Assembly (NCBI GenBank): GCA_049315325.1
Contig: JBMOKJ010000003.1
Span: 30,913 to 54,912, forward strand
Source: Bacteroidales bacterium
GTDB lineage: Bacteria > Bacteroidota > Bacteroidia > Bacteroidales > UBA7332
Direction: 5' to 3'
Length of the DNA: 24,000 nt
This document shows positions 3,539 through 24,000 of the stretch, in pieces. The stretch's first letter is position 1, and each line of letters begins with the position of its first letter. The notes under the pieces were generated by a model, which saw only the letters and a program-made list of their open reading frames with translations, was not told where the DNA came from and ran no database searches. Made by a program: the position numbers and the translations under genes.

Positions 3539-3544
3539 TTATTC

Positions 3545-4839: not shown

Positions 4840-5529
4840 ATGGCTGAAAAAAGTAACAAACCAACAGGTACAGATTTGGAGAATGTTCAAGAAGTTCTTA
4901 CTAAATCGGAACAATTTATCGAAAAATATCAAAAGCAAATCCTAATTGGATTGGCCGTTGTCGTTATTGCCGTATCTGGTGGAATGGCATTTAAATATGC
5001 ATACCTGAAGCCAAAAGAAGAAAAAGCTGAAGCTGCGATGTACAAATGTGAGATCTTCTTCCAACAAGATTCATTCAAATTGGCTCTTAACGGAAATGGT
5101 GCTGATGTGATTGGTTTCGAAGGCGTGATTGACGAATATGGAATTACCAAAACATCGAATGTTGCTAAATTTTACGCAGGTATTTGCCACAAAAACTTGG
5201 GTGATTACGCCAAAGCAATCGACTATTTGAGCGACTTTAGTTCAGACGATAAAATGCTGAAACCTGCTGCAATCTCTGCAATCGGCGATTGTCAAGTAGA
5301 GATGGGCAATGTAGCTGATGCTGCCGAGTCTTTCGAAAAAGCGGCAAAAGTGGCAAACAACGAACTACTATCTCCAATCAACTTGAAGAAAGCAGGATTG
5401 GCTTACGAAAATCTGAAGAAATTCGACAAAGCAATCGAGGTTTATACTACCATTAAAGAGAAATACTTCAATACTCAGGAAGCTGCTGACATCGACAAAT
5501 ACATCGAAAGAGCGAAATTGAATCAATAA
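4840..5529 (+). CDS. Membrane-anchored tetratricopeptide-repeat protein (YfgM-like)
   Basis: Start chosen at [10 protein letters not shown] (4840). Single [20 protein letters not shown] followed by TPR-like helices ([43 protein letters not shown]). Its stop overlaps the ribH ATG (TAATG). Confidence 0.7.
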
Positions 5530-6020
5530 TGGCAACAGCTTATCAGAATCTCTCTTCCTACAATGCCGATTTAGTGCCTGATGCGTCTGAAATGCATTTT
5601 GGTATTGTGGTGGCAGAGTGGAACCCCAATATTACCGAACCTTTGCTTGAGGGCGCTGTGAACACGCTCGAAAAGCATGGTGCAAAAGCAGAAAACATAC
5701 TTGTTACACGAGTGCCTGGCACTTTTGAATTGACTTTTGGTGCACGCGAAGTGGCAGAAAGTGCTGAAGTGGATGCTGTAATCGTGCTCGGCTGTGTTGT
5801 TCGAGGCGATACACCGCACTTTGATTACGTTTGTCAGGGAGTTACGCTTGGTATCACGAAACTGAATTTGCTTTTTACTATTCCGTTTATATTCGGTGTT
5901 TTAACTACCGATACGATGCAACAATCGCTCGATAGAGCAGGCGGAATCCACGGTAACAAGGGCGATGAAGCTGCAATTACTGCAATAAAAATGGCAAATT
6001 TCTCTTGCCAGATTAAATAA
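5529..6020 (+). CDS. ribH: 6,7-dimethyl-8-ribityllumazine synthase
   Basis: 163 aa. [36 protein letters not shown] and GNKGDEAA are characteristic RibH segments. Confidence 0.92.
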
Positions 6021-6297: not shown

Positions 6298-6642
6298 CTA
6301 TTCGTCTTCAATGTCATCCACTGGTTTGCCGCTATCGAGCCATTCCATAATGCCACCGCCAAGTTCATATACTTGCAATCCAATGGATATCATCTCTTTA
6401 GCTGCCAGTTTACTTCTTACGCCACTGCGACAATAGATGGCGACAGGCTTTGTTTTATCTAACTCAGCAATTTGCTCTGTGAAGAATCCAGTAGGGTCAG
6501 TCACATTCATATTTACTGCACCAGAAATGTGTCCGTTGATGTACTCTTCAGTGGTTCTCACATCCACCAATTGCATATCGGGCTGTTGTATCAGTTGCTC
6601 AAACTCATTTGCATGAACCGATGTAAAGCTGTTGTTGCTCAT
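6298..6642 (-). CDS. Rhodanese-like domain protein (sulfurtransferase)
   Basis: 114 aa single rhodanese domain. LVDVRTTEEYINGHISGA and the active-site loop YCRSGVRS (Cys-x5 loop). Confidence 0.85.
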   Translation of the reverse strand: MSNNSFTSVHANEFEQLIQQPDMQLVDVRTTEEYINGHISGAVNMNVTDPTGFFTEQIAELDKTKPVAIYCRSGVRSKLAAKEMISIGLQVYELGGGIMEWLDSGKPVDDIEDE

Positions 6643-6736
6643 TCGTTAACTGTTTTAATTGATTAGGTATTCTGATTTTATAACAACATTGTATTGAAAT
6701 GGTTTATTCTCTTTTGAAAAACTGATGTTAATTAAA

Positions 6737-6774
6737 CCGCTGCACACCTTCGATTTTCTGGTAAGGACGTGCGG
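6737..6774 (-). terminator. Possible terminator hairpin after the lipoprotein gene
   Basis: On the minus strand, CCGCAC-G-TCCTT...AAGG-T-GTGC(A)GCGG is followed by TTTAATTAA. The stem is imperfect and the loop large, so support is weak. Confidence 0.3.
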
Positions 6775-6777
6775 AAA

Positions 6778-8514
6778 TTATCGTTCTTGATATTCAAATA
6801 AGGCAGGGGAGTACCCTGAGGTTGAACTTGAGGTTACATTGAAATATGCTTTATTCCCAATTACGAAAACAGTTTTATTACTATCACTACCTCTAATCAC
6901 TGGATAATTTGAAACTTCAACCCATAAATCTATAAGAGAGTTATATTTATATAACTTCATACCTGAATGAAGGATGTAAGCACTATTATTTAATGTAAAT
7001 CCTACATCCGAATAAGATGAATAAGGATAACTGTTTTTTTGAGTCCATGTGTTGTTTGTAATGTCATATTTATATGTATGACCATCGCTTGCAATATACA
7101 ATTCATTGTTAATATTAAATGCAAATAGAAATCCTCTCTCGACTTTTTTCGGGAAGTTACTTGATTTGGTGTACTTTTCGTTTTCAAAATCACATTTCCA
7201 TAGTTCACCTACATCAGAAATCACAAATAATTCGTCATCAATCCAAGAATAGTTACAGATGCCTGAACTAAATGGTGTGTTATTTTTTCTTTTCCAAGAT
7301 TGATTGATAAAGTCAAACTCCCATAATTCATTCATTTTATTGTGTAAATAATCGATTCCACCAAATTTATAAATTTTGTTGTCTATCACAACAAATTTGC
7401 ACCAATCAGATCTTTCTCCTGGAAAGGTAGAAGTTGTGATTTCATGCCAGTCATTTGTTTGAGGATTATATTCTACAAAATTTTTTGAACTGACTTCGTA
7501 AATATATCCTTTACCTGAGTATACAAATGATTGATAATAATATGACCAATCGAATGGAGGTGATTTTAATTGGCTCCAAGATTTTATACACTTTAATGGG
7601 TGAGAAAATTTTATAGTTTTTAGACCATTTTGATAGTGTAATGTGTCTTCGTAGTCGGAAAATAAATTGTTTAAATTATAGGGTACAATAAAGTTTATTG
7701 AATTGTCGTTTGCTGATATTATGGTTGTTGGAAGAGATCCAATAAATAGCGACTTATAAGACCCATTTTTTAATAAATTATTTCCTTCTATTGTCAAAAT
7801 TTCTCCTGAATGTGCACTTGTTTTTGTGATAGATTCAATAGTTGGACCAATTATGTTAAATGTTTCATTCAACTCAGATACTTTATCTCCATTACTAATC
7901 GCTATTTGAGCTTTTCCAACTTTAGTATTGTCAGGAATCCAAAATATTATGGAATCATTTGAGATGCGTTTAATGCTTGCATGTGCATTGTTAACATAAA
8001 TATTATTCTCAGTCGCAATATGATTCATGTATTTGCAGGTCATTATTATACTGCTTCCGTCATATCCTTCTAGTGGAGAAATATTTTTAATTTGAGGGGT
8101 CTCTGAACCTTGGCTGGTAAATGCTACTGTATTCCCTTTTACAAAATAATTTTCTGTTTTTATGTAAGAGTAGCAGCTATATGTATAATTTTTTCTAAAA
8201 TCAGACTCAATGATGATATTGAAATCAGTTACATCTTTTTTCTTTAATAAACTGTATGTGAATTCATTATTATATTTTTTATCATTACAAATAAAACCAT
8301 AATCTAATATTTTATCTGTTCCAGTTGTTAAAACTTTAGCCTCAAGTTTAACTCCGTATTGTCCAATACTCGAAGCTTCCATCGTTGTTAAAACAGGGTA
8401 TTTTCTATTTTTAAATAATTCTTCGTTCTGACATCCAAAAAGAAAAATTAATTGACTTAGCAAAAAAATTGTTACCCCGCAAATTTTTAAAATGTCAATC
8501 CTACAATTAAACAT
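6778..8514 (-). CDS. Surface lipoprotein with an N-terminal Ig-like domain, two IPT/TIG-like domains and a C-terminal Kelch-like beta-propeller
   Basis: 578 aa. Signal peptide with lipobox LFGC. Two IPT/TIG-like segments (PQIKNISPLEGYDGSSII... and GPTIESITKTSAHSGEILTIEGNNL...). The C-terminal ~260 aa carry repeated W-containing blades (TNDWHEITT, NQSWKRKNN, NNTWTQKNS, IDLWVEVSN). Strongly AT-rich codon usage. Confidence 0.6.
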   Translation of the reverse strand: MFNCRIDILKICGVTIFLLSQLIFLFGCQNEELFKNRKYPVLTTMEASSIGQYGVKLEAKVLTTGTDKILDYGFICNDKKYNNEFTYSLLKKKDVTDFNIIIESDFRKNYTYSCYSYIKTENYFVKGNTVAFTSQGSETPQIKNISPLEGYDGSSIIMTCKYMNHIATENNIYVNNAHASIKRISNDSIIFWIPDNTKVGKAQIAISNGDKVSELNETFNIIGPTIESITKTSAHSGEILTIEGNNLLKNGSYKSLFIGSLPTTIISANDNSINFIVPYNLNNLFSDYEDTLHYQNGLKTIKFSHPLKCIKSWSQLKSPPFDWSYYYQSFVYSGKGYIYEVSSKNFVEYNPQTNDWHEITTSTFPGERSDWCKFVVIDNKIYKFGGIDYLHNKMNELWEFDFINQSWKRKNNTPFSSGICNYSWIDDELFVISDVGELWKCDFENEKYTKSSNFPKKVERGFLFAFNINNELYIASDGHTYKYDITNNTWTQKNSYPYSSYSDVGFTLNNSAYILHSGMKLYKYNSLIDLWVEVSNYPVIRGSDSNKTVFVIGNKAYFNVTSSSTSGYSPALFEYQER

Positions 8515-9623
8515 ATTTCTCTATTATTTAGATGATCGCCTCCCGAATAAATTGCCTCAAGTTTGTTATATCTTAATTCAAATGACGGTTTAAACTTTCC
8601 AAAGAGTTGGTGCCCAAATCCAAATCCAATTGTATATCCAATTAACCAGTCATTTAGAATGTTGGGTTGAGTTGGTTCTAATATTTCAACTCTATTGTCA
8701 GAAATCAAAGCTGCATACAAAGTACTTTTTTTCTTGAAATTATAGCCGGCTATTGGTCCTAAACTTATGTAAGGACTATATGCTCTTTTGGTTAGAAGGT
8801 ATTTTAATTGGACTGGAAACTTGATAGATGAATAATCCCCCAACAAATCGTAATCAGTTGTTTTATTATTAATGTTTACATTCATTGCATGATATATAAA
8901 AGAATATCTTGAAAAATAAATTTCTGTTTTTATCGAAAAAGAACTATATTCTATTGGTATTTCATTAAAAAGTCCAATCGAAAAAGAATTCAAAAATAAA
9001 AAATTCATATTTGCGATACCCACAAGCGACATTTGATCAGAATTTACAAATTTGCTAAATTCAAATGAAGCTCTAACACCCCATTTATATTTGGAAAGTT
9101 CATATACTTTACCTTTGTTCAGCCTGCTTAAAAATTCCGAAATCGAACCAAGATTATATTCTACAGTTTGAATTATTTCATTAATATTTTTATAACTCTG
9201 TGAGATTTCAAGTAATTTATCACGATAGTTGTCTTTAGTCAATTCACAAAATAATATATTTTTGACTGAGTTCTGCTCCAAAAAATATCTATTGTTTGAA
9301 TTTTGGTATAAACAATACAAGTTATAGTCGCCTTGTACTACTAACTCCATGAAAAAATTTTCATTCTTCGAACCATTAATAATGCTTTTAGATCTGAAGA
9401 TTCGGCCGTCCGCATAGCCAAATTCTTTAATTTCATACGGAGAATACTTTTGGAGTTCACCATTTTGTTTTTTCTCAATTAAGTAAAAAGTGTTTTTAAT
9501 ACCCCATTCCTCTACAATATTAATACCGGTATAAAGGATCGAGTCACTAAGGATATAATTCTTTTGTGAGAAAGATGATAAAGACAAAGCCCAAAATACA
9601 AAAGCGATTTTATAACACTTCAT
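8487..9623 (-). CDS. Outer-membrane beta-barrel protein with an N-terminal soluble domain (family unknown)
   Basis: Start placed at MKCYKIAFVFWALSLSSFSQ (signal peptide, ATG 9623) because a -7 box lies inside the longer ORF version. The C-terminal half has alternating aromatic/hydrophobic strands and ends in ...IVGLTF (terminal Phe, typical of OMPs). The 3' end overlaps the downstream lipoprotein start by 28 nt. Confidence 0.5.
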   Translation of the reverse strand: MKCYKIAFVFWALSLSSFSQKNYILSDSILYTGINIVEEWGIKNTFYLIEKKQNGELQKYSPYEIKEFGYADGRIFRSKSIINGSKNENFFMELVVQGDYNLYCLYQNSNNRYFLEQNSVKNILFCELTKDNYRDKLLEISQSYKNINEIIQTVEYNLGSISEFLSRLNKGKVYELSKYKWGVRASFEFSKFVNSDQMSLVGIANMNFLFLNSFSIGLFNEIPIEYSSFSIKTEIYFSRYSFIYHAMNVNINNKTTDYDLLGDYSSIKFPVQLKYLLTKRAYSPYISLGPIAGYNFKKKSTLYAALISDNRVEILEPTQPNILNDWLIGYTIGFGFGHQLFGKFKPSFELRYNKLEAIYSGGDHLNNREICLIVGLTF

Positions 9624-9659
9624 AGAGTGATTTAATATATTATTTTTTTTTACTTTCAG

Positions 9660-9667
9660 CAAAATTA
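9660..9667 (-). promoter_or_regulatory. Candidate -7 box (TAATTTTG on minus strand) for the OMP-lipoprotein operon
   Basis: The plus strand reads CAAAATTA, 37 nt upstream of the ATG at 9623. Confidence 0.4.
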
Positions 9668-9910
9668 CAAACATTAATCAATAATATGAAATTTTTCAGT
9701 ATTTATATATAAGGTTTTTCACAATAATTTTTAAACTCTTTGCATATTACATTTTAGATATAATCTATAATGTTCTTTTGATTCATCTTTTTCTAGTCGG
9801 GTTGGATTTGCTGTGGGTTACTTTCAATAACACAAGAATCTGTCTTTCTATAATATATTGATTGGATTTTTGGATTGAAAACATGATTGTCGCAGGCAAG
9901 TTCTTATATA

Positions 9911-9986: not shown

Positions 9987-10013
9987 CCGCTAAGCGCATA
10001 ACGCGCTAAGCGG
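9987..10013. repeat. REP-like palindromic element CCGCTAAGCGC-ATAAC-GCGCTAAGCGG
   Basis: 11-bp stem with a single central A-A mismatch. An inverted copy of the same unit occurs at 13726-13752 on the other side of the ABC operon. Confidence 0.7.
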
Positions 10014-10030
10014 ATATGGATAGTGGTTGT

Positions 10031-11797
10031 TTAACTCTCTCTCTTCCCGTGTAGCAAGAGATTCACGGCATCGTGGAGTGAACCGGCTTTGGTGACTGCT
10101 CCCGAGTTGATAAAGTAGATTTCGTCGGCATTCTCGATGGTGTTGAGGCGGTGCGCGATGATGATTTTGGTGGTCGAAGCAGGCAGTTTCTTTAGAATGT
10201 CGTCGAGCAGTTGCTCGGTCACGGTGTCGATGTTGGCCGTTGCTTCGTCAAGAATCAGCAGTTTGGGTTTGCGCAGCACCGCACGGATGAAGGCGATGAG
10301 TTGCTTTTGTCCGAGGCTAATTCCGTCGTTCGATGCCTGCACCGATGTTTCCAATCCGTTTTCGAATCGGTCGAGCAATCCGTTGAGACCAGCTGCTTTC
10401 AGCACATTCACTAACTCTTCATTGGTAAGTGACTGATATTCTGCGTTTCCGTAGAGAATATTCTCGCGAATGGTGCCTGTGAAGAGGAATGGGTCTTGCA
10501 GGATAAAACCAATCATCGACGTGCGCACTTCGGGGTCGATGGAGCGAATGTCTTCGCCATCGAGGTAGATTTGTCCCGAAGTGGGGTCGTAGAGTCGGGC
10601 AATGAGTGAGGCGGTGGTTGTTTTTCCACCTCCGGTAGGTCCAACGAATGCGTATGTTTTCCCGCTTTCGAGGTTGAAGCTGATGTTGCTCAGGATTTCT
10701 TTATCGGGAGTGTATGAAAACGATACGTTGCGGAATGAGAGCAGCGACGCTTTGGCTTCTGCTTTTGCTGCAGGCTCCACATTCAGATTGTTCTCCATAT
10801 TCAATATTTTGGAGATGCGATCCCATCCAGCGAGTGCGGTTTGGAAATTCGCCCAAAGCGAAGCAATCTGACGAAGCGGATTGTAGAACTGCGCAATGTA
10901 AGAGAGGAAACTGATGAGCAACCCGACCGAGAATTGACCGATGGTAATGAGGTAAATCCCGAATGCGAGCACAATCATCTGCCCGATGCTCGACAAAAAG
11001 CTGTAAACCGGCATAAAGAGGTTGTTGGCAACGCCAGCTTTCACCGCGGTATCGTAGTTTTGGTTGTTCACTTCCTCGAAGCGTTTGCGGAAGTAGTCCC
11101 GCCGATTGAAGGCAATCACCACTTTGAAGTTCGCCAAACTCTCTTGAATCTCCGAACTGAGGCTTCCGGTGCTCTTCATATTGGTTGCATTCCGGCTCTT
11201 CACCCAAGGGGAAATACTGCGAGTGAAAATCAACAGCAAAAGGGCAGGAGCAAGCGCTGCAAAGGCTAACTTCGCATTGATAGAAAAGAGGAAGATGCCT
11301 GCACCAATCATCGTGAAAATGCTGCTCAGAAACTGCACAGACGATTGCGCGAAGAACTGATTGATTTTGTCGGTGTCGTTGTTGATACGCGAAATCAAAT
11401 CTCCGGCTTTATTTTGGTTAAAAAAGTCGATGGGCAACTCCTGCAACTTACCAAAAACAGTGTTGCGCAGGTTGAAGAGCATGCGTTGTGCCACGCGCCC
11501 CATCAGTTGCGTTTGGGTGTAACCACTCACCACAGCGAGCAGAAAAATACCCAACAGAATGATGGAATATTCAATCACACCGTTGTATTGCTTGGTGACG
11601 ATAAACTGATCCACCGCATGACCAATCAAGTAAGGGCCAATCAAGTTCAACCCCGAATTCAGAAAGATAAAGAAGAGCGCAAAATAGAGATTTCTTCGCT
11701 CCGAACCAATCAGGGTGATGAAGCGAGTGAAAGTGGTTTTTGCACCCGATTTGTGCGCCGTTTCCGACTCTGAATGATCGTAGAGATTATAGTTCAT
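10031..11797 (-). CDS. ABC exporter permease/ATPase fusion (type I exporter half-transporter, canonical ATPase site)
   Basis: Start taken at MNYNLYDH (ATG 11797), which overlaps the upstream stop by 11 nt (ATGAACTATAA); the ORF track start is 11836. Six-TM region, Walker A GPTGGGKTT, Q-loop ILQD, degenerate signature ISLGQ, Walker B LLILDEATANID, H-loop IIAHR. Confidence 0.9.
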   Translation of the reverse strand: MNYNLYDHSESETAHKSGAKTTFTRFITLIGSERRNLYFALFFIFLNSGLNLIGPYLIGHAVDQFIVTKQYNGVIEYSIILLGIFLLAVVSGYTQTQLMGRVAQRMLFNLRNTVFGKLQELPIDFFNQNKAGDLISRINNDTDKINQFFAQSSVQFLSSIFTMIGAGIFLFSINAKLAFAALAPALLLLIFTRSISPWVKSRNATNMKSTGSLSSEIQESLANFKVVIAFNRRDYFRKRFEEVNNQNYDTAVKAGVANNLFMPVYSFLSSIGQMIVLAFGIYLITIGQFSVGLLISFLSYIAQFYNPLRQIASLWANFQTALAGWDRISKILNMENNLNVEPAAKAEAKASLLSFRNVSFSYTPDKEILSNISFNLESGKTYAFVGPTGGGKTTTASLIARLYDPTSGQIYLDGEDIRSIDPEVRTSMIGFILQDPFLFTGTIRENILYGNAEYQSLTNEELVNVLKAAGLNGLLDRFENGLETSVQASNDGISLGQKQLIAFIRAVLRKPKLLILDEATANIDTVTEQLLDDILKKLPASTTKIIIAHRLNTIENADEIYFINSGAVTKAGSLHDAVNLLLHGKRES

Positions 11798-13538
11798 AGT
11801 GGTTTGTGCTGCGTTGTGAGTTGTAAATTTGAACATATTCGGGGCAAGATGCCATCAGCGATTCGTGTGTGCCACGTGCCAATATTTCGCCCTCTTCGAG
11901 CAGAATAATCTGTCCGTAATCGATAACCGATGCAATCTTTTGAGTCACCGACAGCAGGGTAATGTCGGGATAGTTCTTCGCTACGTTAGCGAGAATCTTC
12001 TGTTCTGTTTGGTTATCCACCCGAGCCGTAAAGTCGTCGAGCAGCAGAATCTTTGGATTGATTGCCAAGGCACGTGCAAGCATGATGCGTTGTTTCTGAC
12101 CACCTGACAGACTGGTGCCTCGTTCGCTCACGATTGTTTCGAGTCCGTTTGGCAATGAGGCAATAAAATCGCTTAGCTCGGCTGTTTCAATCGCTTTCGC
12201 TATCAATTCGTCGGTCACCTTTTCGTTGAACGCAATGTTTTCGCGCAGACTCATATTGAATATCACACTGTCTTGAAACACAAACCCGATTTGGTGCTGA
12301 AACAGCTCTTTGTCGAATGCGTTGATGTCTGTGTCGTCGAAGAGGATTTGTCCTTCTTTGGGATGAATCAATCCGGTGAGCAGGTAGAGCAACTGCGTTT
12401 TGCCCGCAGCCGTTGGACCAATGATGGCAGTGCGAGTATTCGGAGCGATGTGCAGAGAAACACTTTTCAATGCCGCTTTTTCGCCATACGTCACCGTGAT
12501 GTTTTGCAGTTCGATTTCGCCGTGCAGCGGAGTGGTAATGGTTCCAGTGTCGCGCGTGTCGGGAGCATGCAGAATCTCGTGGATGCGACCATACGAAACC
12601 GAAGCTTGTGTGATAAAGTTACTGATAAACCCCATCACCATAATAGGGAAAATCAGAATCACCAAATACGAACTAAACGCAGCAAAATCGCCCAACGACA
12701 TCGCTCCTGTGATGACGAAGTGACCACCCAACAGCAGAATGGTGAGCGAAGCAATGTTGCTCACAAATACCACAATCGGTATCAGCGTGGCAAACAGACT
12801 CAAAATCGAAATACCAATGTTTTTGGCTTGCGTGCTGGCATCTATAAATTTCTTGTATTCAAACGTTTGCGCATTGAGCACCCGCACAATGGCAGCACCC
12901 ATCACACTCTCCACAATCACTTTGTTGAGCCAATCCACCACTTCGCGGCTTTTCTTAAACAGCACACCCACTTTGCCAAATACAAATACAAACGAGGTGA
13001 TAATAATCGGGATGATAGTGAGGATGGCGAGAGCCAGTTTCCAGTCGATGGAAATGAGCAAGATGCTTGCTCCAATAATGATGAAGAGCGAAGAGGCCAT
13101 CGTAACGACTGCCATCGAAACAAAGAATTTAATCGAATCGATATCGGCTGTGAGGTTGGTGAGCAACTTCGACGGATTGGCTTCCTGAATAAAAGTATAG
13201 CTCTGACGCGAAATCTTGTCGGTCAGTTGGGTGCGAAGGTCGCGCGCTACCTTTTCCGATGCATAAGTTTGCAATATGCCTTGCAGAAAGGTAAAGATAA
13301 AGATGATGAGTGCTGCTACCACAAACTCGATAATGACTTTTTCGTACGAGAAGTTTCCGCTCGTGAAGTCGTCTATGCTGTGTGATATGAGTTTCGGAAT
13401 CACGAGGTTCACGGCGTTGGCCAACAGCGCAAAACCAATTAAACCATACACCATCTGTTTGTAGGGTTTCAGCACCTCAAACACGCTGGGCTTGCGAGGT
13501 CGCTTCTCCTTTTTCTGCTTTATATCTTTTTTTGCCAT
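11787..13538 (-). CDS. ABC exporter permease/ATPase fusion (half-transporter with degenerate catalytic residues)
   Basis: 583 aa. TM domain, Walker A GPTAAGKTQ, canonical signature LSGGQKQR, Walker B ILLLDDFTARVD (Asp in place of the catalytic Glu), H-loop position LSVTQK (Gln in place of His). Confidence 0.9.
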   Translation of the reverse strand: MAKKDIKQKKEKRPRKPSVFEVLKPYKQMVYGLIGFALLANAVNLVIPKLISHSIDDFTSGNFSYEKVIIEFVVAALIIFIFTFLQGILQTYASEKVARDLRTQLTDKISRQSYTFIQEANPSKLLTNLTADIDSIKFFVSMAVVTMASSLFIIIGASILLISIDWKLALAILTIIPIIITSFVFVFGKVGVLFKKSREVVDWLNKVIVESVMGAAIVRVLNAQTFEYKKFIDASTQAKNIGISILSLFATLIPIVVFVSNIASLTILLLGGHFVITGAMSLGDFAAFSSYLVILIFPIMVMGFISNFITQASVSYGRIHEILHAPDTRDTGTITTPLHGEIELQNITVTYGEKAALKSVSLHIAPNTRTAIIGPTAAGKTQLLYLLTGLIHPKEGQILFDDTDINAFDKELFQHQIGFVFQDSVIFNMSLRENIAFNEKVTDELIAKAIETAELSDFIASLPNGLETIVSERGTSLSGGQKQRIMLARALAINPKILLLDDFTARVDNQTEQKILANVAKNYPDITLLSVTQKIASVIDYGQIILLEEGEILARGTHESLMASCPEYVQIYNSQRSTNHYEL

Positions 13539-13773: not shown

Positions 13774-14136
13774 TTACAGCCTCATATTCTGTTTGATCTC
13801 CTCCAATACCTGCATCGGGTAATTGAAGATTAAATTGTTTTCGAAGCGAATCACGCGAACGCCTACCGAGTTCAGGTAGTTTGTGCGCAGTGTATCATAT
13901 TTCCGGCCTTCTTCTGTGAAATGTCCTGCGCCATCGAGTTCGATAGCCAGTTTGTGTTTGTGGCAGTAGAAATCTACAATGTAATGACCAATGCTGAATT
14001 GTCGCAGAAAACGCTCACCGTTCAATTGCCGATTCTTAATCATCATCCAGAGCGCAACTTCTGCAGCCGTCATACGGTTGCGGAGTTCGCGGCGGTAAGG
14101 CTTCATCTCGGGTAGGGTGTTTATTGGGCTTGGCAT
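13774..14136 (-). CDS. DUF559 endonuclease-domain protein (Vsr/restriction-endonuclease-like fold)
   Basis: RELRNRMTAAEVALW...LNGERFLRQFSIGHYIVDFYCHKHKLAIELDGAGH...YDTLRTNYLNSVGVRVIRFEN matches the DUF559 pattern. Start set at M32 (ATG 14136). The longer ORF to 14229 would translate the upstream G4/C4 repeat, so the start is uncertain. Confidence 0.75.
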   Translation of the reverse strand: MPSPINTLPEMKPYRRELRNRMTAAEVALWMMIKNRQLNGERFLRQFSIGHYIVDFYCHKHKLAIELDGAGHFTEEGRKYDTLRTNYLNSVGVRVIRFENNLIFNYPMQVLEEIKQNMRL

Positions 14137-14156
14137 GGTGGGGGATTTTTTTAATA

Positions 14157-14208
14157 ACCCCTCCGCTTCGCGGTATACCCTTGAAAAAAGGGGAAAGGGG
14201 ACATTTAC
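14157..14208. repeat. G4/C4-rich repeat, left (shorter) copy
   Basis: ACCCCTCCGCTTCGC ... CCCTTGAAAAAAGGGGAAAGGGGACATTTAC. This is the reverse complement of segments of 14365-14440. Confidence 0.7.
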
Positions 14209-14364
14209 GCGGTGCGAAGAGATATACAATAAATTTTTATGCTACTATTATTGAGACTGAATTTAGATATATCCTATTTAAAAAAAATAAATCATTTAAA
14301 CATTATTCGTTTCTGCATCTTACAATACTAATTCACAAACAAAACCCACAAATTCCCGAACTTG

Positions 14365-14440
14365 GTAATGTCCCCTATCCCCTTTTTAAGGGGAAACCAC
14401 CCAGTGGTGGGGTTATAGGGGACGAGCGAAGCGGAGGGGT
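14365..14440. repeat. G4/C4-rich repeat, right (longer, multi-hairpin) copy
   Basis: GTAATGTCCCCTATCCCCTTTTTAAGGGG...ATAGGGGACGA-GCGAAGCGGAGGGGT. Outer 9-bp stem GTCCCCTAT/ATAGGGGAC encloses hairpins CCCCTT-TTT-AAGGGG and CCACC-CAGT-GGTGG. Confidence 0.7.
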
Positions 14441-14572
14441 CAGAAACCTACAAACATCACTAATCTTCCTAATTACATCACCAATTCTCGCAAGTTTTTA
14501 TCTAATTATTTTTGTCTCCGACTTTTAATTAAAAAGTACAAGTTACGCTCGTTAGGCGTAGTATAGTTGTCG

Positions 14573-16459
14573 CTATTTCAGTATGATTTTCGTTGTCAGC
14601 ACGTTACCGTTTCTGTCTATCGCTTTAAAAATTCCCATTTGTCTACAAAGTTTGAACGAACTTCCTTTTCCTTGTTGTAAAAGTTGTCCTTCTAACGAAT
14701 AAAATTTCAAATTCACTTCGTTGTCGAACTGCAATTTGTTGTCAACAAGTCGATAATTTATATTTCCTTCTTTTGTCTTGTCTAAAGCAGTCGCTTCGCC
14801 GACATCAAAATAACCATACGGATAAACTGCTGTATGAATTCCTAGAGTTGTTGTCAGTTTATATTTTCCGTCTGTAAGTGTTATGTTCTTTGCATTTCCG
14901 TCACCTACAAAGTTTTGTGTTTCTGTCCATGTAGTGTCAGTTCCACTAATAGAGCTAGCTTTCAATAGTTTATAAGTAATCCCAGTCGTTGTTGTCGGAA
15001 AATTAAGCGTTTTAGCCGTGCTGTTGAATGTCGGTTTTTCAAGAATTGAAATAGTATCACTAGATTCAGAGTTGTCATTAAATGTTTTATCCATTGTGTG
15101 AGACACATAAGAACCAAATGTAAATGTCTTTGTACTGTCTGTCTCACTTGTTGAAAAATAATTTCCATGCATATCTAACCAACCATATAAAACAAAATTT
15201 CTACCTGCAGAAACCTGTGCACTACTTCCTTGTGTTACCCAAATAAAATCGGGATAATTTCCGTAGGTAGCAGAACCAATTGTTTGGTCTTGTAGATCGG
15301 CTTGGTAGTTGACATAAAGTTCAATAGTTTTAGGATTTGATATTGTATTGAAATTTAATTGCCAATGTCCAGGAAGATTACAAAGAAAAGAACTTCCATA
15401 TAATGTTTTTCCGTCAGGAGTTAACACTATATATGAATTTATATCCATTCCACTATTTGTAATATAAACTGATTTCCCAGTTTTAATAGATAAATTTATT
15501 AGTGACTTATCTGGAAGGTTTGGGATTACATATGGATTTACTTGAGAATAATTCCGTGGGTCAATAGTTGCATGACCAAGAGGTGAACTTACAACAAAAT
15601 AACCATACGGATAAACTGCCGTATGAATTCCAAGTGTTGTTGTCAGTTTATATTTTCCGTCTGTAAGTGTTATGTTCTTTGCATTTCCGTCACCTACAAA
15701 GTTTTGTGTTTCTGTCCATGTAGTGTCAGTTCCACTAATAGAGCTAGCTTTCAATAGTTTATAAGTAATCCCAGTCGTTGTTGTCGGAAAATTAAGCGTT
15801 TTAGCCGTGCTGTTGAATGTCGGTTTTTCAAGAATGGAAATGGTGTCTCTTGACTCTGAGTAATTATTAGCGGTTGCATCCATTGTGTGCATTTCATAAT
15901 TGCCAAATGTCAATGTCTTAGTACTGTCACTTACATAATTGTTAGAAATTATCACCCTTACTCCATCTATACAACTCCATTCATGGACAGCAAATATTGA
16001 TCCGCTACTTGCTGTTGCAATACCACCTTGTGTTACCCAAATAAAATCGGGATAATTTCGATAGGTAGCCGAACCATTTGTTTGGTCTTGTATGTCGACT
16101 TGGTAGTTGACAATACAAGCAATTGATCTTTCTGCTCCGCTTTGATACCATGTTAAACCCCATGTTCCAGGTACATCAATAATGAAAGTTGAAACATTTA
16201 CTAAATTTCGACCATCAGGAGTGCCATGTCTTCCAGTTCCCAAGTTTGCAAATTGAATAACAGCAGGTATTGGTTTGCCAGTTTTAATTTTTAAATAAAA
16301 AGTACTTCCATTTGGTAAACTTGGAATAACATAAGGATTTGCTTGAGAATAATTACGTGGGTTGATTGTCGCCGAATTTTGTCCAAAAGAACTAAAAATT
16401 GTGCTTCCAAGTAAAATCGCAAACAGAAAGAATCGAAATGAGTTAAAAAGTTGTTTCAT
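14573..16459 (-). CDS. Secreted protein of unknown function with two 263-aa tandem modules and a probable T9SS C-terminal sorting domain
   Basis: 628 aa. Signal peptide MKQLFNSFRFFLFAILLGSTIFSSFGQ. Two modules repeat at a 789-nt offset. The C-terminal ~70 aa (NLKFYSLEGQLLQQGKGSSFKL...GIFKAIDRNGNVLTTKIILK) resemble a Por_Secre_tail (type A CTD). Confidence 0.75.
   Translation of the reverse strand: MKQLFNSFRFFLFAILLGSTIFSSFGQNSATINPRNYSQANPYVIPSLPNGSTFYLKIKTGKPIPAVIQFANLGTGRHGTPDGRNLVNVSTFIIDVPGTWGLTWYQSGAERSIACIVNYQVDIQDQTNGSATYRNYPDFIWVTQGGIATASSGSIFAVHEWSCIDGVRVIISNNYVSDSTKTLTFGNYEMHTMDATANNYSESRDTISILEKPTFNSTAKTLNFPTTTTGITYKLLKASSISGTDTTWTETQNFVGDGNAKNITLTDGKYKLTTTLGIHTAVYPYGYFVVSSPLGHATIDPRNYSQVNPYVIPNLPDKSLINLSIKTGKSVYITNSGMDINSYIVLTPDGKTLYGSSFLCNLPGHWQLNFNTISNPKTIELYVNYQADLQDQTIGSATYGNYPDFIWVTQGSSAQVSAGRNFVLYGWLDMHGNYFSTSETDSTKTFTFGSYVSHTMDKTFNDNSESSDTISILEKPTFNSTAKTLNFPTTTTGITYKLLKASSISGTDTTWTETQNFVGDGNAKNITLTDGKYKLTTTLGIHTAVYPYGYFDVGEATALDKTKEGNINYRLVDNKLQFDNEVNLKFYSLEGQLLQQGKGSSFKLCRQMGIFKAIDRNGNVLTTKIILK
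14807..15058. repeat. Near-identical 252-bp intragenic repeat, copy in module 2
   Basis: Encodes DTISILEKPTFNSTAKT...HTAVYPYGYF (84 aa), identical to the copy 789 nt away. Over 14807-15046 I count only 3 nucleotide differences, all synonymous. Confidence 0.9.
15596..15847. repeat. Near-identical 252-bp intragenic repeat, copy in module 1
   Basis: Partner of 14807-15058 at an exact 789-nt offset. Confidence 0.9.
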
Positions 16460-16547
16460 AATGTCGTTGTTTTGTTGTTATATTTTCGTTTTCAGATTAA
16501 TTTTTGCTCTGTCTTTTTTTTTTGAATGGGGCATAATTTCGTCGTGG

Positions 16548-16562
16548 CGGAATTGCATTCCG
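16548..16562. promoter_or_regulatory. Palindromic operator-like site CGGAAT-TGC-ATTCCG
   Basis: Perfect 6+6 inverted repeat centred 96 nt upstream of the T9SS-cargo ATG (16459). Confidence 0.4.
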
Positions 16563-16580
16563 TCTCTTTTTATATTATCA

Positions 16581-16593
16581 GGAATTGTATTCC
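16581..16593. promoter_or_regulatory. Second palindromic site GGAAT-TGT-ATTCC
   Basis: Perfect 5+5 inverted repeat with the same half-sites, centred 32 bp from the first site (three helical turns). Confidence 0.4.
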
Positions 16594-16647
16594 GAAAAAT
16601 TATAATATTCCTTTACAAAACAGAAAGTAGCCTTCAATATTTTCCCC

Positions 16648-16655
16648 CAAATATA
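16648..16655 (-). promoter_or_regulatory. Possible -7 box (TATATTTG on minus strand) for the T9SS-cargo gene
   Basis: The plus strand reads CAAATATA, about 190 nt upstream of the ATG. I found no TAnnTTTG match closer to the start. This position would put the GGAAT palindromes in the leader. Confidence 0.25.
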
Positions 16656-16859
16656 CAAATTATCATAAAACCATCAAATAGAATTTTAGAATTGGGTGTA
16701 GATTGGCAATTATTTATCGAAATAGGGGTGATATGTTAAGAAAATGAGTTCTTTATTTACACCATTTGTTTAACATTTCCATGAACTCATTCATTTTTCT
16801 GGGCAATTAGGTTTGGTAAACGCTAAGTTCTTATCTCAGCTTAGTGTAAGTCTATGTTG

Positions 16860-17211
16860 TTGAGGTTGTATTCTATTATTTGTCTGCTACAATCGAACGG
16901 ATGCGACCTCAATATTCGTTGTTCGTCCTCCACAAATGGTCGTTTGTGACCTCAAACCCGTGTGTTTGTCTTGCTCAATTCATCTGTATTGAGGTCAATC
17001 TCGGTGTTTTGTCTTCTTAAAAAGTCGGTTTTGACCTCGTATCTTACTATTTGCCTTGCTCAATGGATGGGTTTTGAGGTCAATCACTATCATATTTCTT
17101 GAAAAATAGGTGGATTCTACCTCAATCATAAGCATTTATTTGCGATGAAATGGCGGTTTTGAGGTCAATTACTATCGTTTGTAGTAATCAAAATGCCGAT
17201 GTCAAGGTCGA
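16860..17211. repeat. Array of nine TTGA-SS-TCAA sites at a 42-43 bp period (non-coding)
   Basis: 10-mer starts: 16860 TTGAGGTtgt, 16903 gcGACCTCAA, 16946 gTGACCTCAA, 16989 TTGAGGTCAA, 17031 TTGACCTCgt, 17074 TTGAGGTCAA, 17116 TctACCTCAA, 17159 TTGAGGTCAA, 17202 TcaAGGTCgA. A G/T-rich run such as GGTTTT precedes most copies (clearest at 17031, 17074 and 17159). No credible ORF covers the region. Confidence 0.8.
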
Positions 17212-17320
17212 TAGTTGGTATAAGTGCAACACTGTTTATTGATCTCACAGATAATGCTGCATATTCTTTCTTGCAGTGGGGAGTGGTTTAGTTTCATTTG
17301 ATTTTGACTTTCTCGAAGTA

Positions 17321-17380
17321 CTGACAGATTTGGCAGATTTCTGACAGTTTGGCAGATGTGGTTTGTCAGATTTCTGACAC
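17321..17380. promoter_or_regulatory. Cluster of helically phased TCTGACA/TGTCAGA half-sites forming two 16-bp palindromes (enhancer/UAS-like)
   Basis: CTGACAG 17321, TGGCAGA 17331, CTGACAG 17341, TGGCAGA 17350, TGTCAGA 17364, CTGACAC 17374. The palindromes are TGGCAGATTTCTGACA (17331-17346, one mismatch) and TGTCAGATTTCTGACA (17364-17379, perfect), with centres 33 bp apart. Confidence 0.5.
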
Positions 17381-17532
17381 GCTCGAGTTGTCGCAAATTC
17401 TAAACATAGAATCATTCTATTTTACATACTTCAACTATTTTATTAAAGTATCAGACTATCAGCTAAATACGATTGGGTGTTTGTGAGTTTTACGTGCTTG
17501 AAATTAAAATATATTGTGTTTATTTCACACTT

Positions 17533-17548
17533 TGGCACACCGTTTGAT
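17533..17548 (+). promoter_or_regulatory. Sigma-54-like -24/-12 element TGGCAC-ACCGT-TTGAT
   Basis: Perfect -24 TGGCAC with correct 5-nt spacing to TTGA (consensus TTGC, so one mismatch in the -12 GC). It lies 182 nt upstream of the ATG at 17730, and I found no TAnnTTTG box between 17400 and 17730. Confidence 0.35.
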
Positions 17549-17729
17549 AATATGCTGATAGACATTTCTGACGACGGATTTGAAAACCTCGGGGGATGTT
17601 TATGTCGAAACTATGTGCGTGAGATAGCATGTAAACTCTTGAAAAGCGCAACAGGCAGTTTGATTGGTTTATCCGCTCCGCACGATAGCAAAACGGCATC
17701 TAATTATTTATTTTAAAAAACTTTTTACA

Positions 17730-18524
17730 ATGAGAAAATTTATTACTTATGTTTCGTTTGCCAGGTTGGCCAATCTAGAATTTATGCGATTGGTGATGAA
17801 GCTGGTGCATGTGGTTGCCAAACACGATCCGGCAGCCCTCAAAATTGAAGGAGTGTATAACTTGTTGGTGGCTTTACTCCCCAAGCTGAAAACCCTACAA
17901 GTGAAATCGAGTAAACATCCGAACAGCACGGAGCTAAAGGTTTTGCGACTAAAACGTCGAAGCCTGTTGGTGGTGATTACGGGTAAAATGCGTCTGCTGC
18001 CCAAGGCTCAGGTAGATGTGTTGAGTGCACCTTCTGCTTTGGTATTGCCGCTGCTCGAGAAGTATCTCAAAAACATCGTGGCCGACAAGCTGAATACGCA
18101 GTCGGAGAAAATCAACGAACTGTTTGATGAGTTGAACGGCAATGCGGCGGTGAATGCGGCACTTGCGACCCTCGGTCTGAAGCCTTATTTCGATGAGTTG
18201 AAAGCGATACAAAGCTCTATTGAGCAGACGGGCGACGCGCAGTTGGAAAATAAATCGGTAAAAAAATTGAAGGTGTTGAATCACGAGATCAGAGCTGAGT
18301 TGTACGATGCGATGACAGATTTGTTCAATGCTATCGAAATTGCCAAAAAAGAGAACAAAGAGTTGGACTACACTGCGCTAATCAGTGAGGTGAACGAATT
18401 GTTGAAGCCTTACCAGACGGACATTAAATCGCGCAGCACGCGTTCGAAAAATGCGTTATTAGCTGCTGATAAGTCAGACGCAGAAATTGCTGCATCACCT
18501 ACCACCGATAGCTTGGCGGTGTAG
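17730..18524 (+). CDS. Alpha-helical hypothetical protein, DUF6261-like (assignment from memory of the family pattern)
   Basis: Start set at MRKFITY (ATG 17730). The N-terminus SFARLANLEFMRLVMKLVHVVAKHDPAALKIEGVYNLLVALL resembles the ..L.RLRN.EHFQF....L.....P.ALKI..L...L motif I recall for the Bacteroidota DUF6261 family. The rest is predicted helical or coiled, with no catalytic motifs. Confidence 0.55.
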   Translation: MRKFITYVSFARLANLEFMRLVMKLVHVVAKHDPAALKIEGVYNLLVALLPKLKTLQVKSSKHPNSTELKVLRLKRRSLLVVITGKMRLLPKAQVDVLSAPSALVLPLLEKYLKNIVADKLNTQSEKINELFDELNGNAAVNAALATLGLKPYFDELKAIQSSIEQTGDAQLENKSVKKLKVLNHEIRAELYDAMTDLFNAIEIAKKENKELDYTALISEVNELLKPYQTDIKSRSTRSKNALLAADKSDAEIAASPTTDSLAV

Positions 18525-23147: not shown

Positions 23148-24000
23148 CTATTTCAGTAATTTAATTGCTTGTTCGAGCTGCTTATCTACTCCGTTGGCAA
23201 CATCGGCAGCGGTCTGAGGCACCACAATATCAGGAACGATGCCGTTCCACTCTACCATTTTGCTATCTTTTGATTGCACGAAAAAGGCATACGGCATTCT
23301 GATTCTTTTTCGGCTGGGTAGTGTGAAGAATTGAGTTGATCCACCGCCTCCACCTGTCGTATCGCCTACGGTAGTTACATTTGGCAATTGCTTCATCAGA
23401 TCGGGTAGCAGCTCAGCACAACTAAAACTCGCACCATTGATAAGTATCACAACTGGTTTGTAATACTTTACAAAACCTGATGGTTGTATTTGCAGTTGAC
23501 TATTTATCGTTCCGTCTTTGTAATAAAAGGTTTCGGTGATGTGTGTCGATATGAAGCGACTAATGATGACGTCTGAAATGTTGGATGAACCGCCACCGTT
23601 GTTTCGCACATCGAGAATAAGCCCTTTTGTGTTTGATAAGTCGCGCAATATCTTGTCAATATCGGTAGCCCAATCGCCCTCTTCGAACGACGACAAATAG
23701 ATGTATCCAGCGTTATTGGGTAAAATACCGTACGCAAAATTACCCTCACCAGCTAATTGTAGTTTTTGATTGAAATAGGTGCTTATCACCACTTGGCTAA
23801 ACGAGGTATGATCTTTGTAGCGCGGCCAGATGTAGGTCTGCATAGGAAAACCACCTTCGGTAATCAGTTGGATATGACCGTCTTTGAGGTTGCTGAGCAA
23901 CGAATGAAAAACAGGATAAACCTCATCGCCCTGCGCCTGATCTACACGCGGTTGATAAGCACTGACTAAACTATCCCAATTGATGTGTTTGAATTTCAAA
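23148..24000 (-). CDS. S41-family peptidase-like protein, 5'-truncated by the window edge
   Basis: GLILDVRNNGGG (S41 motif), INGASFSCAELLPDLM, VGDTTGGGGG. The apparent start at 23999 is a TTG at the window edge. Alignment with the paralog (NIDWDSIKKVY vs HINWDSLVSAY) implies about 50 N-terminal residues lie outside the window. Confidence 0.7.
   Translation of the reverse strand, partial: LKFKHINWDSLVSAYQPRVDQAQGDEVYPVFHSLLSNLKDGHIQLITEGGFPMQTYIWPRYKDHTSFSQVVISTYFNQKLQLAGEGNFAYGILPNNAGYIYLSSFEEGDWATDIDKILRDLSNTKGLILDVRNNGGGSSNISDVIISRFISTHITETFYYKDGTINSQLQIQPSGFVKYYKPVVILINGASFSCAELLPDLMKQLPNVTTVGDTTGGGGGSTQFFTLPSRKRIRMPYAFFVQSKDSKMVEWNGIVPDIVVPQTAADVANGVDKQLEQAIKLLK

Follow-up and report, generated by a model that had tools for sequence, protein, structure and literature searches.

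A phased array of dyad-symmetric 42–43-bp repeats recurs upstream of DUF6261 genes in Bacteroidota

Results

The window, by which we mean the whole 24-kb stretch of DNA that was analysed, carries at 17730–18524 (plus strand) a gene for a 264-residue, all-alpha protein of the family DUF6261 (Pfam PF19775, E = 5e-14), and about 500 bp upstream of this gene lies an array of tandem repeats (16848–17232). The Bacteroidetes −7 promoter box has the consensus TAnnTTTG. On the far side of the array, a divergent gene (14573–16459) is putatively served by a leftward −7 box, TATATTTG (16648–16655, minus strand), whose promoter role is judged from the published Bacteroides consensus and which is kept in the window, at the related loci L002 and L004, and also at L005 and L134. 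On the other side, a promoter-like segment (17514–17549, plus strand; TTG at −33, then TTCACAsTTTGGCAC-N5-TTTG) is conserved in four loci, and the array is bracketed by the leftward −7 box and this rightward promoter-like site. Directly after the segment comes a leader hairpin, ACATTTCTG..CGGGGGATGT (17561–17600, plus strand), predicted by RNAalifold from four loci and containing three invariant U.G pairs. Because this hairpin is conserved, the mRNA is expected to start between the array and 17561, and because it follows immediately on the promoter-like motif, the distance from the array to the likely transcription start downstream is 300–690 bp. In the window clade, the array is thus positioned upstream of a conserved mRNA leader.

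A block of GGCAGA and TGTCAG-N4-CTGACA repeats (17321–17380; repeat families D3, D11, D12 and I10) separates the array from the gene, and equivalent TGTCA-rich blocks are present in L002–L005, L007, L009 and L013. A sigma-54 promoter was rejected: GG at −24 and GC at −12 are not kept family-wide, and the likeness is limited to the window clade (TGGCAC-N5-TTGA/T), as L005 has TTGCAC-N5-TTGC and L009, L007 and L013 have TTGCAT, TAGCAT and TCGCAT, respectively, each followed by N5-TTGT. A rightward −7 box that matches TAnnTTTG exactly, TAGGTTTG (16808–16815, plus strand), precedes the array by 40 bp and could be a candidate start of an array transcript; in L002, L005 and L102, too, a box of this type precedes the array, by 15–42 bp (four arrays, including the window). 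Such a box directly upstream is not a general property of arrays in Bacteroidota, being found in 1 of 48 others. The first-pass annotation had called the region free of open reading frames, which holds insofar as nothing supports coding, but two small ORFs (16362–16739, plus strand, and 17202–17396, minus strand) do touch the edges of the array. Tiny conserved upstream ORFs starting from the ATG of a recurrent CAAAATG box were also rejected, since the window clade does not keep this ATG and the frames differ.

The array consists of about nine degenerate direct tandem repeats with a unit of 42–43 bp and a higher-order unit of 85 bp, as delimited by autocorrelation, by a stack of its units and by unit-wise alignment, in which it matches L002 3998–4425 and L004 676–1090 unit by unit. 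Each unit holds a dyad, TTGA-SS-TCAA: three copies are perfect, seven have at most two mismatches and the two at the ends are weak. The nine sites listed in the first-pass annotation were all found where it had placed them, with spacings along the array of 43, 43, 43, 42, 43, 42, 43 and 43 bp. The outermost two, TTGAGGTTGT (16860–16869) and TCAAGGTCGA (17202–17211), are degenerate with three mismatches each, and are counted as units solely because they are in phase and have orthologous units in L002; the L002 unit orthologous to the former has ATAGAGGTTGA, and the L004 orthologue of the latter is a different perfect palindrome, TGCCAATCGTTGGCA. Between them lie GCGACCTCAA (16903–16912), of which the identical variant GCGACCTCAATATT forms the last unit of L002; GTGACCTCAA (16946–16955), with CC at its centre; TTGACCTCGT (17031–17040); TCTACCTCAA (17116–17125); and three perfect copies of TTGAGGTCAA (16989–16998, 17074–17083 and 17159–17168), which have GG centres and, as previously noticed, start 85 bp apart. 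The first of these perfect copies corresponds to ATAGAGGTCTAT in L002 and GATAAAAGTTTATC in L004, a series with two symmetric double changes.

The clustering of these sites far exceeds chance: seven sites within two mismatches of TTGASSTCAA are packed into 266 bp, and seven in 270 bp were obtained in 0 of 1000 shuffles (Poisson P = 4e-8), although across the whole window matches at this threshold are rarer than expected (27, against 41 by chance). Direct autocorrelation of the array peaks at lags 43 (0.47) and 85 (0.44); shuffles reach 0.37 at most. Tandem Repeats Finder did not detect the array, because identity between units is below 70%. Most neighbouring sites had been described as mutually inverted; in fact, only the central dinucleotide flips, and the flanks (..AAATGG.GGTT before the site, TCACTATC..TTTGTCTTGCTC after it) point the same way whether the centre is GG or CC, so that the units are direct repeats. 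Unit stacks further reveal a second, weaker dyad in the spacer, TTTG-N7-CAA[A/T] (16965–16979, with further clear copies at 17049–17064 and 17178–17192), about 21 bp off the main dyads. Its 3' arm is a CAAA(A)TG box that is common to distant DUF6261 arrays and that is invariant, as CAAAATG, in the arrays of L005 and L009. Tandem promoters within the units were rejected, as TTTG recurs at 20 or 43 bp, which is incompatible with the −33/−7 geometry. In the window, L002 and L004, the periodicity of A3/T3 tracts is strongest at 10.75 bp, which is the fourth harmonic of the unit; this signal is not universal among other lineages.

Comparison of the three orthologous arrays (window, L002 and L004) indicates what is being maintained. 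They align with 0–1 gap columns in 379, but their identity (46–58%) is no higher than that of four-fold degenerate sites (53–61%), and the combination of near-zero indels with identity at or below four-fold sites argues that selection keeps length and phase. This alignment bears out the earlier view that preservation is limited to the sites and their phase. Dyad symmetry is retained by two-sided change: within these three arrays, from which all covariation counts are drawn, both positions had changed in 17 of 54 symmetric pairs, a number reached in 0 of 500 shuffles and compared with 3–8 in slid controls. The resulting variants, related by symmetric double substitution, are TTGA..TCAA, ATAGA..TCTAT and GATAAA..TTTATC, and their centres of 0–3 nt flip freely (GG/CC, GGG/CCC/GCC). 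Moreover, the change from TCAA to TCTA affects all units while the spacers of units 1–4 are still orthologous in order (diagonal scores 4, 8, 13 and 12): such concerted change of the dyads without homogenisation of the spacers points to a trans-acting factor that reads the dyad, not to repeat homogenisation. The later units of the window array and of L002 are rearranged relative to each other. The order of GG and CC centres also differs between orthologous units (unit 3 has CC in the window and GG in L002), and the alternation is absent from L004, L005 and L135. Two properties of phased operators are thus present, namely whole-helical-turn spacing and, over three sequences, dyad symmetry sustained in evolution.

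DUF6261 is the only gene consistently linked to the array, which we found upstream of it at every locus with enough upstream DNA, even though the proteins are only ~23–35% identical. Among loci derived by homology, the period is 85 bp in the window and L002, 43 bp in L004, L007 and L141, and 42 bp in L005, L009 and L136/L137; the 42–43-bp period is kept although unit sequences are unrelated between clades. A scan for three CAAAATG boxes spaced by 41–43 bp placed arrays directly upstream of eight further DUF6261 genes, with periods of 41–42 bp in Bacteroidaceae, Parabacteroides, Marinifilaceae, Prolixibacteraceae and Roseivirgaceae; the scan being circular for motif and period, the link to DUF6261 alone is independent evidence here. 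The long upstream region of nearly every member examined combines three elements: palindromes arrayed in four-turn phase, a block rich in TGTCA, and a structured leader. The arrangement of these parts varies: L136/L137 have the array, an intrinsic terminator on the sense strand right after it, a canonical −33/−7 promoter and then the gene, and in L102 and L129 canonical promoters likewise sit between array and gene. In L115 and L035, only 64 and 45 bp, respectively, separate the end of the array from the start codon, with no intervening promoter box, and these two arrays are probably transcribed.

DUF6261 itself is a widespread Bacteroidota family without known function, and a full-text literature search gave no paper that discusses it. 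An AlphaFold2 model of the protein (pLDDT 82) has ten helices. Foldseek found no match at E 0.001 or better among solved and viral structures, a profile search of the sequences of solved structures yielded chance matches only, NCBIfam and PHROGs returned nothing for the DUF6261 proteins, and PADLOC gave a single marginal match (L074, E = 0.002); neither the model nor these fold and sequence searches revealed a recognisable DNA-binding fold. Members are basic solely in the close clade and acidic in distant ones, which rules out, family-wide, an obviously basic DNA binder. A protein search with one genome per species detected no relatives of the window's subfamily, and viral contigs carried no relatives either.

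Discussion

The array is real, recurs upstream of DUF6261 genes across Bacteroidota and is previously undescribed: searches of the literature on Bacteroides tandem-repeat RNAs and 42-bp repeats turned up nothing relevant except BrickBuilt, which is discussed below. We tentatively favour, with confidence a little short of even, the view that it is a phased, dyad-symmetric binding platform for a putative protein in an upstream control region. The array would be a cis-acting element working as double-stranded DNA, offering seven to nine dyad sites, one per four helical turns (42.7 bp), and a second, weaker dyad half a period off; whole-turn spacing places all sites on one face of the helix. A putative dimeric, sequence-specific protein would bind cooperatively along this shared face, forming a nucleoprotein complex, extended or wrapped, within the 890 bp that separate two outward-facing promoters, and the complex would control DUF6261 and possibly the divergent gene as well. 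We infer that a protein reads the array, as DNA and not as RNA, and that the output is transcriptional control. The 10.75-bp phasing of A3/T3 tracts fits same-face binding and is meaningful for duplex DNA only, freely flipping centres of 0–3 nt suit the site of a symmetric dimer, and we count in the same direction the lack of a consistent strand preference in predicted folding (12 arrays) and the promoters that lie between array and gene in L136/L137, L102 and L129. Counting against a binding array are the lack of a recognisable DNA-binding fold in DUF6261, the promoter-less gap in L115 and L035 together with the −7 box upstream of four arrays, the L005-type units found away from DUF6261 and the non-universal 10.75-bp signal; the differing palindromes of L004 (TGCCAATCGTTGGCA, ACAAGCGATTGT) also fit selection for hairpins better than selection for one binding sequence. 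A same-face binding array had been proposed in the first-pass annotation, and phase, symmetry and A3/T3 tracts lend it partial support, though not the iterons and partition centromere named as its forms.

Phased operators and upstream activating sequences, like the array, comprise dyad-symmetric or repeated sites for which cooperative binding on one face is expected, and LytTR-type direct repeats (21-bp period), Lrp and OmpR arrays and the sites of enhancer-binding proteins share its whole-turn spacing upstream of a promoter. The array differs from such operators in that its sites are unusually many (7–10 over 350–430 bp) and unusually far upstream (300–690 bp), in that no cognate regulator is encoded next to it, and in that the −24/−12 resemblance of the nearby promoter-like motif is not conserved family-wide. 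A bolder and rather doubtful proposal is that the 41–43-bp arrays and DUF6261 form a previously unrecognised, co-diversifying Bacteroidota pair, in which a lineage-specific palindrome would be matched by a fast-evolving reader, perhaps DUF6261 itself, or else that the arrays are a new class of tandem-hairpin regulatory RNA. Were the pair real, extra arrays such as that upstream of clpB (L134) would be a regulon or chromosomal docking sites, and the pair would amount to a new protein–nucleic-acid recognition system with a new fold. More generally, the upstream array gives the DUF6261 family a concrete experimental handle, and lineage-specific dyads predict a reader that co-evolves with them; its discovery would give Bacteroidota, in which transcriptional control is still poorly mapped, a further regulator or architectural system, and would explain the recurrent assembly breaks beside DUF6261 genes.

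The array might instead act as RNA, an explanation we regard as unlikely. Its sense-strand transcript (a long leader or a separate non-coding RNA) would then consist of serial modules, each with one hairpin around the CAAA(A)UG box and a second, lineage-specific hairpin, and these modules would bind or titrate an RNA-binding protein or stabilise the transcript. This explanation would account for the constant orientation of CAAAATG, which is on the sense strand of the gene in all homology-derived and seven of eight scan-derived loci (in L023 the box itself is palindromic), for the arrays of L115 and L035 that abut the start codon with no promoter box between, for the TAnnTTTG boxes upstream of four arrays, including TAGGTTTG at 16808, and for the sense-strand terminator immediately after the L136/L137 array. 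Palindromy is also kept with different sequences among the L004 units, one of which has a GCGA loop, and predicted folding of the sense strand of the window array is better than that of shuffles (z = −4.5 and −4.2, with −2.4 for the antisense strand). However, across 12 arrays folding energy has no consistent strand preference, the window dyads as RNA give local stems of just 3–4 bp with loops of 2–4 nt, G.T and A.C mismatches are about equally frequent in the imperfect dyads, and the four-turn period and the 10.75-bp phasing of A/T tracts have no obvious RNA rationale; nor is a promoter box general upstream of the Bacteroidota arrays (1/48). A known Rfam RNA was rejected: at a permissive threshold, 16300–17900 gave only chance-level matches (E ≥ 0.44), and at gathering thresholds the arrays of 10 related loci had no match. 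The specific form suggested at first, serial hairpins of 8–10 bp with 33-nt loops, is not supported: it needs GG/CC partners, but their order differs between orthologues, pairing between units is not conserved, and L004, L005 and L135 have no alternation; an RNA role in some other form is possible.

Setting the favoured binding platform against mobile repeats, we consider it improbable that the array is a minisatellite-type element (compare BrickBuilt and REP/BIME) that spreads among intergenic regions, in which case effects on promoters or terminators would be incidental at most and the link to DUF6261 historical. In favour of spread, the L005-type unit (GGTCACTCyrCAAAATG plus AGCGTA-NNN-TACGCT) occurs in three genomic contexts in metagenomes, one of them upstream of a clpB-like ORF (L134) and another flanked by lpxH-like and T9SS-domain genes (L135); L005 and L134 share a homologous upstream leader of ~100 bp, and their downstream flanks are unrelated. 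Many other CAAAATG arrays in Bacteroidota lie in convergent intergenic regions without a DUF6261 gene, contigs frequently break in or at arrays, the window and L002 differ by rearrangement of later units, and BrickBuilt provides a precedent in Bacteroidales (PMC4596501). Against spread stand the presence of the array upstream of DUF6261 at every checkable locus despite protein identities of ~23–35%, the near absence of indels, unlike neutral intergenic DNA at comparable divergence, and the concerted change of dyads without spacer homogenisation, which needs selection by a trans factor. In addition, we saw no terminal inverted repeats or transposase remnants and no variation in copy number among contigs with identical proteins, and the window dyad was found solely in the array within the 24 kb. 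The BrickBuilt element of Porphyromonas gingivalis, a minisatellite/MITE, is built of 23-nt units, carries terminal inverted repeats in its leader and tail segments, and is present 19 times per genome (PMC4596501). The array resembles it as an apparently dispersed family (here L134 and L135) of intergenic Bacteroidales tandem repeats that is associated with promoter regions and troubles assembly, but differs in its 42–43-bp units with internal dyads, its lack of visible terminal inverted repeats, its orthologous position, its indel-free conserved length and its link to one gene family. REP/BIME and the array are both extragenic arrays of palindromic units with seemingly alternating orientation. 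In enterobacterial BIMEs, whole palindromic units are inverted, GC-rich and present in hundreds per genome; in the array, only the central dinucleotide flips, the flanks are direct, the dyads are short and the 24 kb hold no other copy. Even as RNA or as selfish minisatellites, the arrays would be an annotatable repeat class instead of blank intergenic DNA.

A replication or partition role, whether through iterons or through a sopC-like centromere with a ParB-type binding protein, is very improbable and largely refuted. The sopC site of the F plasmid consists of twelve direct repeats of 43 bp with a short inverted repeat in each, and the anatomy of the array resembles it: direct tandem units with a 43-bp period, about ten copies, and one dimer-bindable inverted repeat per unit, all on one face. 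Yet sopC is plasmid-borne beside sopA and sopB and its units are nearly identical, whereas the array is chromosomal among ordinary housekeeping neighbours, its units are degenerate except for dyad and phase, and in many genera it tracks the 5' region of one chromosomal gene family. Neither parA nor parB nor rep was found among the window ORFs, for which Pfam scans covered 19 of the 24 of at least 130 aa (ORFs outside the scans were 10701–11207 on the minus strand and 10841–11269, 11345–11773, 12273–13385 and 12739–13188 on the plus strand, which overlap ABC-transporter genes, and also 14124–14528, plus, and 23148–23999, minus), and neither DNA nor protein showed similarity to plasmids or phages. 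Plasmid iterons are direct repeats of 17–22 bp beside a rep gene and an AT-rich unwinding element, an arrangement at odds with dyad-symmetric sites at 42–43 bp. An oriC was rejected, there being no cluster of DnaA boxes and no change of sign in GC skew. A CRISPR array was rejected as well: there are no cas genes, the repeats are degenerate, and the spacers are mutually homologous, with the lag-43 autocorrelation extending over the whole unit.

Structure and conservation of the array

The nine sites lie at the positions reported in the first-pass annotation, with spacings of 43, 43, 43, 42, 43, 42, 43 and 43 bp: three are perfect copies of TTGAGGTCAA at 85-bp intervals, four more have one or two mismatches to TTGASSTCAA, and the first and last, with three mismatches each, count as units by phase and orthology only. 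The motif (≤2 mismatches) shows no overall enrichment in the window (27 found vs. 41 expected); seven of these matches are clustered within 266 bp, which none of 1000 shuffles equalled (Poisson P = 4e-8). Because direct autocorrelation (16820-17260) peaks at lags 43 (0.47) and 85 (0.44), against a shuffle maximum of 0.37, the array (16848-17232) consists of degenerate ~43-bp units repeated directly in tandem, with a higher-order unit of 85 bp. Tandem Repeats Finder did not call it, the divergence between units being too great, and Rfam returned no match for the region. Neighbouring sites had been described as mutually inverted: the central dinucleotide does flip between GG and CC, but the site as a whole does not, since its flanks run in the same direction in both kinds of unit (..AAATGG.GGTT[site]TCACTATC..TTTGTCTTGCTC). 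Each unit also carries a second, weaker dyad, TTTG-N7-CAAA, ~21 bp off the main one.

Seven proteins in the protein collection are 73-100% identical to the DUF6261 protein of the window, and two of their contigs, L002 and L004, extend sufficiently far upstream. The left-hand neighbour genes of both are unlike those of the window, and the full 1.1-1.2-kb upstream region can still be aligned. Unit-by-unit alignment of the three arrays gave gaps in 0-1 of 379 columns, and identity between orthologous arrays was 46-58%, not exceeding the 53-61% measured at the gene's four-fold degenerate positions; length and phase are far more strongly conserved than sequence, which bears out the earlier statement that only sites and phase are preserved. 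The main dyad is (A)TTGA-SS-TCAA(T) in the window, ATAGA-SS-TCTAT in L002 and GATAAA-SS-TTTATC in L004, where there are further palindromes (e.g., TGCCAATCGTTGGCA and ACAAGCGATTGT). Across the nine aligned dyads, 17 of 54 symmetric pairs changed on both sides, a number reached in 0 of 500 shuffles (3-8 when the partner was slid). By spacer comparison, units 1-4 are orthologues standing in the same order in the window and L002 (diagonal scores 4, 8, 13 and 12), with rearrangement among the later units; the dyad therefore underwent the same change in units already distinct in their common ancestor, and a trans factor reading the dyad sequence would be the simplest cause of this concerted change. 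The array is thus genuine as well as conserved; we found no description of it.

The region between array and gene

The array sits within the 1270 bp that separate a leftward gene (14573-16459) from the rightward DUF6261 gene (17730-18524; PF19775, E = 5e-14). Between array and gene lies a dense block of GGCAGA and TGTCAG-N4-CTGACA repeats (17321-17380; TTTGGCAGATTTCTGACA twice, 33 bp apart), and comparable TGTCA/TGACA-rich blocks are found at the equivalent position in L002, L003, L004, L005, L007, L009 and L013; this block may be a second cluster of binding sites. Exactly 52 nt after a conserved promoter-like motif, TTCACAsTTTGGCAC-N5-TTTG (17514-17549), comes GGGGGAT, which takes part in a leader hairpin (17561-17600) whose three U.G pairs are invariant. 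The conserved stretch 17514-17729, within which there is also a long-range pairing (TGTCG...CGACA), looks like a structured 5' leader, and parts of the leader region, ATCGATGTTTACA and AACAGGACGTTTT, turn up again at three distant loci, L005, L009 and L013. This succession of motif and hairpin places the array upstream of the likely promoter. In contigs L136 and L137 the array is followed by an intrinsic terminator, then a canonical -33/-7 promoter and then the gene.

Arrays across the DUF6261 family and beyond

Profile searches extended the set to DUF6261 proteins that share 23-40% identity with that of the window, and an array was found at every DUF6261 locus with enough upstream DNA: three 42-bp units in L005 (CAGCGTA-GGG-TACGCTG plus an invariant CAAAATG box), six 42-bp units in L009 and two 43-bp units in L007. 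Because some contigs start inside arrays (L136 and L137, 42-bp units; L141, 43-bp units) or exactly at an array edge (L003, where the L002 array ends), the arrays appear to break assemblies systematically next to DUF6261 genes. Contig ends within arrays recur (L136 1-110, L137 1-125, L141 1-95 and L003 1; further, L017 1-227, L059 1-173 and L037 6848-7022), and the L136 and L137 breaks, from two independent samples, are at most 13 bp apart.

Scanning for three CAAAATG boxes at 41-43-bp spacing, one genome per species, returned at least 120 loci, about half of them Bacteroidota among the matches listed, with a DUF6261 ORF directly downstream in at least eight (L023, L035, L061, L074, L102, L109, L115 and L129); the scan is circular for motif and period, not for the DUF6261 link. 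Palindromes among these DUF6261 arrays are lineage-specific: CTTCCACAAAATGTGGAAG in L115, TTCCAG-GAG-CTGGAA in L035, GGTCC-N6-GGACC in L074 and TGTAC-CC-GTACA in L102.

No gene other than DUF6261 consistently accompanies the array. The AlphaFold2 model of DUF6261 is confident (pLDDT 82) and all-helical, and the structure, sequence and family searches run yielded neither a significant relative nor an annotation. A basic patch (residues 61-100) is confined to the close clade, distant members being acidic, some with long acidic tails, and DUF6261 is at most a candidate nucleic-acid binder; the array would gain in interest if a co-evolving reader were found, be it DUF6261 or another protein. The gene divergent from DUF6261 encodes an FHA + LytTR DNA-binding protein in L009 (3324-4040, minus strand), L010 and L011, and this neighbour is missing from other DUF6261 loci; LytTR regulators typically target direct repeats with a ~21-bp period. 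The divergent region of L005 contains two DUF805b RNA motifs (RF02914, above gathering score; 4561-4593 and 4910-4944, minus strand).

A metagenome scan with the L005-type 42-bp unit revealed two more arrays of that unit with no DUF6261 gene nearby, one (L134, 2170-2440) preceding a clpB-like ORF by 270 bp and the other (L135, 10550-10770) flanked by an lpxH-like gene and a T9SS-domain gene. Within the L134 and L135 palindromes the central triplet varies (GGG, CCC, GCC, GGC). Among the matches listed, many further CAAAATG arrays of Bacteroidota are not next to a DUF6261 gene and are mostly found where two genes converge, some of these with 21-bp units; the repeat class thus extends beyond DUF6261. 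Tannerella and Flavobacteriales arrays (L017 1-227, L086 7088-7328 and L040 3446-3670) have 21-bp units, half of 42, with CAAAATG in each. Chloroherpeton (Chlorobi) and a Verrucomicrobiaceae MAG carry 42- and 41-bp CAAAATG arrays ~100 bp upstream of ORFs that have no Pfam match (L018, array 3769-3863, ORF 3969-4592, 208 aa; L022, array 5098-5192, ORF 5289-5996, 236 aa).

Competing readings of the array

We tentatively place first, as a candidate, an array of phased, dyad-symmetric sites that a protein would bind on duplex DNA, in the control region upstream of DUF6261, because the period is four helical turns in all clades, the arrays are almost free of indels, A3/T3 tracts peak at 10.75 bp (window clade), dyad centres of 0-3 nt flip freely, folding energy has no consistent strand preference (12 arrays), and the array precedes the likely promoter. 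The same-face binding proposed earlier is consistent with the period, near-absence of indels and tract peak; the iteron and centromere forms suggested for it found no support. A transcribed tandem-hairpin RNA, which we rank second, is less likely. In its favour, the CAAAATG box keeps a fixed, sense orientation, the L004 units are palindromic though their sequences differ, and the L115 and L035 arrays end 64 and 45 bp before the start codon with no intervening promoter box. Also in favour of RNA, four arrays, that of the window among them (16808), have an exact TAnnTTTG box 15-42 bp upstream; this is not general, since such a box precedes 1 of 48 others. The RNA model first put forward, with adjacent GG and CC sites pairing, is not conserved, since the CC of unit 3 in the window corresponds to GG in L002, and the alternation is missing from L004, L005 and L135.

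Rather improbable, and third, is a dispersed minisatellite-type or mobile repeat whose function would be incidental. The extension of the repeat class beyond DUF6261 keeps it alive, with L005-type arrays at L134 and L135 and a ~100-bp homologous stretch upstream of the array shared by L005 and L134, and BrickBuilt of P. gingivalis offers a precedent (PMC4596501). Last, and very improbable, comes a replication or partition element: the window has no detected rep or par genes, plasmid or phage similarity or DnaA-box cluster, and its GC skew does not change sign. The closest match by anatomy is sopC of plasmid F; tests of centromere membership nonetheless came out negative.

Other features of the window

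The window, from a MAG, is ordinary Bacteroidales chromosome, with genes for a dCMP deaminase, S41 peptidases, 5-FTHF cyclo-ligase, DciA, RecF, lumazine synthase, two tRNAs, two ABC exporters and one DUF559 protein; no cas genes were detected. The DciA-family gene directly adjoins recF (3248-4642, minus strand), with no origin signs (DnaA boxes, skew change) nearby. G+C swings sharply at 6500-9700 and 10000-13500, from ~29% over a Kelch/IPT protein and a 395-aa unknown protein to 47-50% over the two ABC exporter genes (~35-42% elsewhere). The minus-strand gene at 14573-16459 encodes a 628-aa protein with no Pfam match, a signal-peptide-like N-terminus and a ~270-aa internal duplication (ATINPRNYSQANPYVIP.. 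/ ATIDPRNYSQVNPYVIP..); its 5' region contains the palindrome GGAATTG[C/T]ATTCCG twice, 32 bp apart (16549-16594), and the first copy additionally scored as a terminator-like feature of the plus strand.
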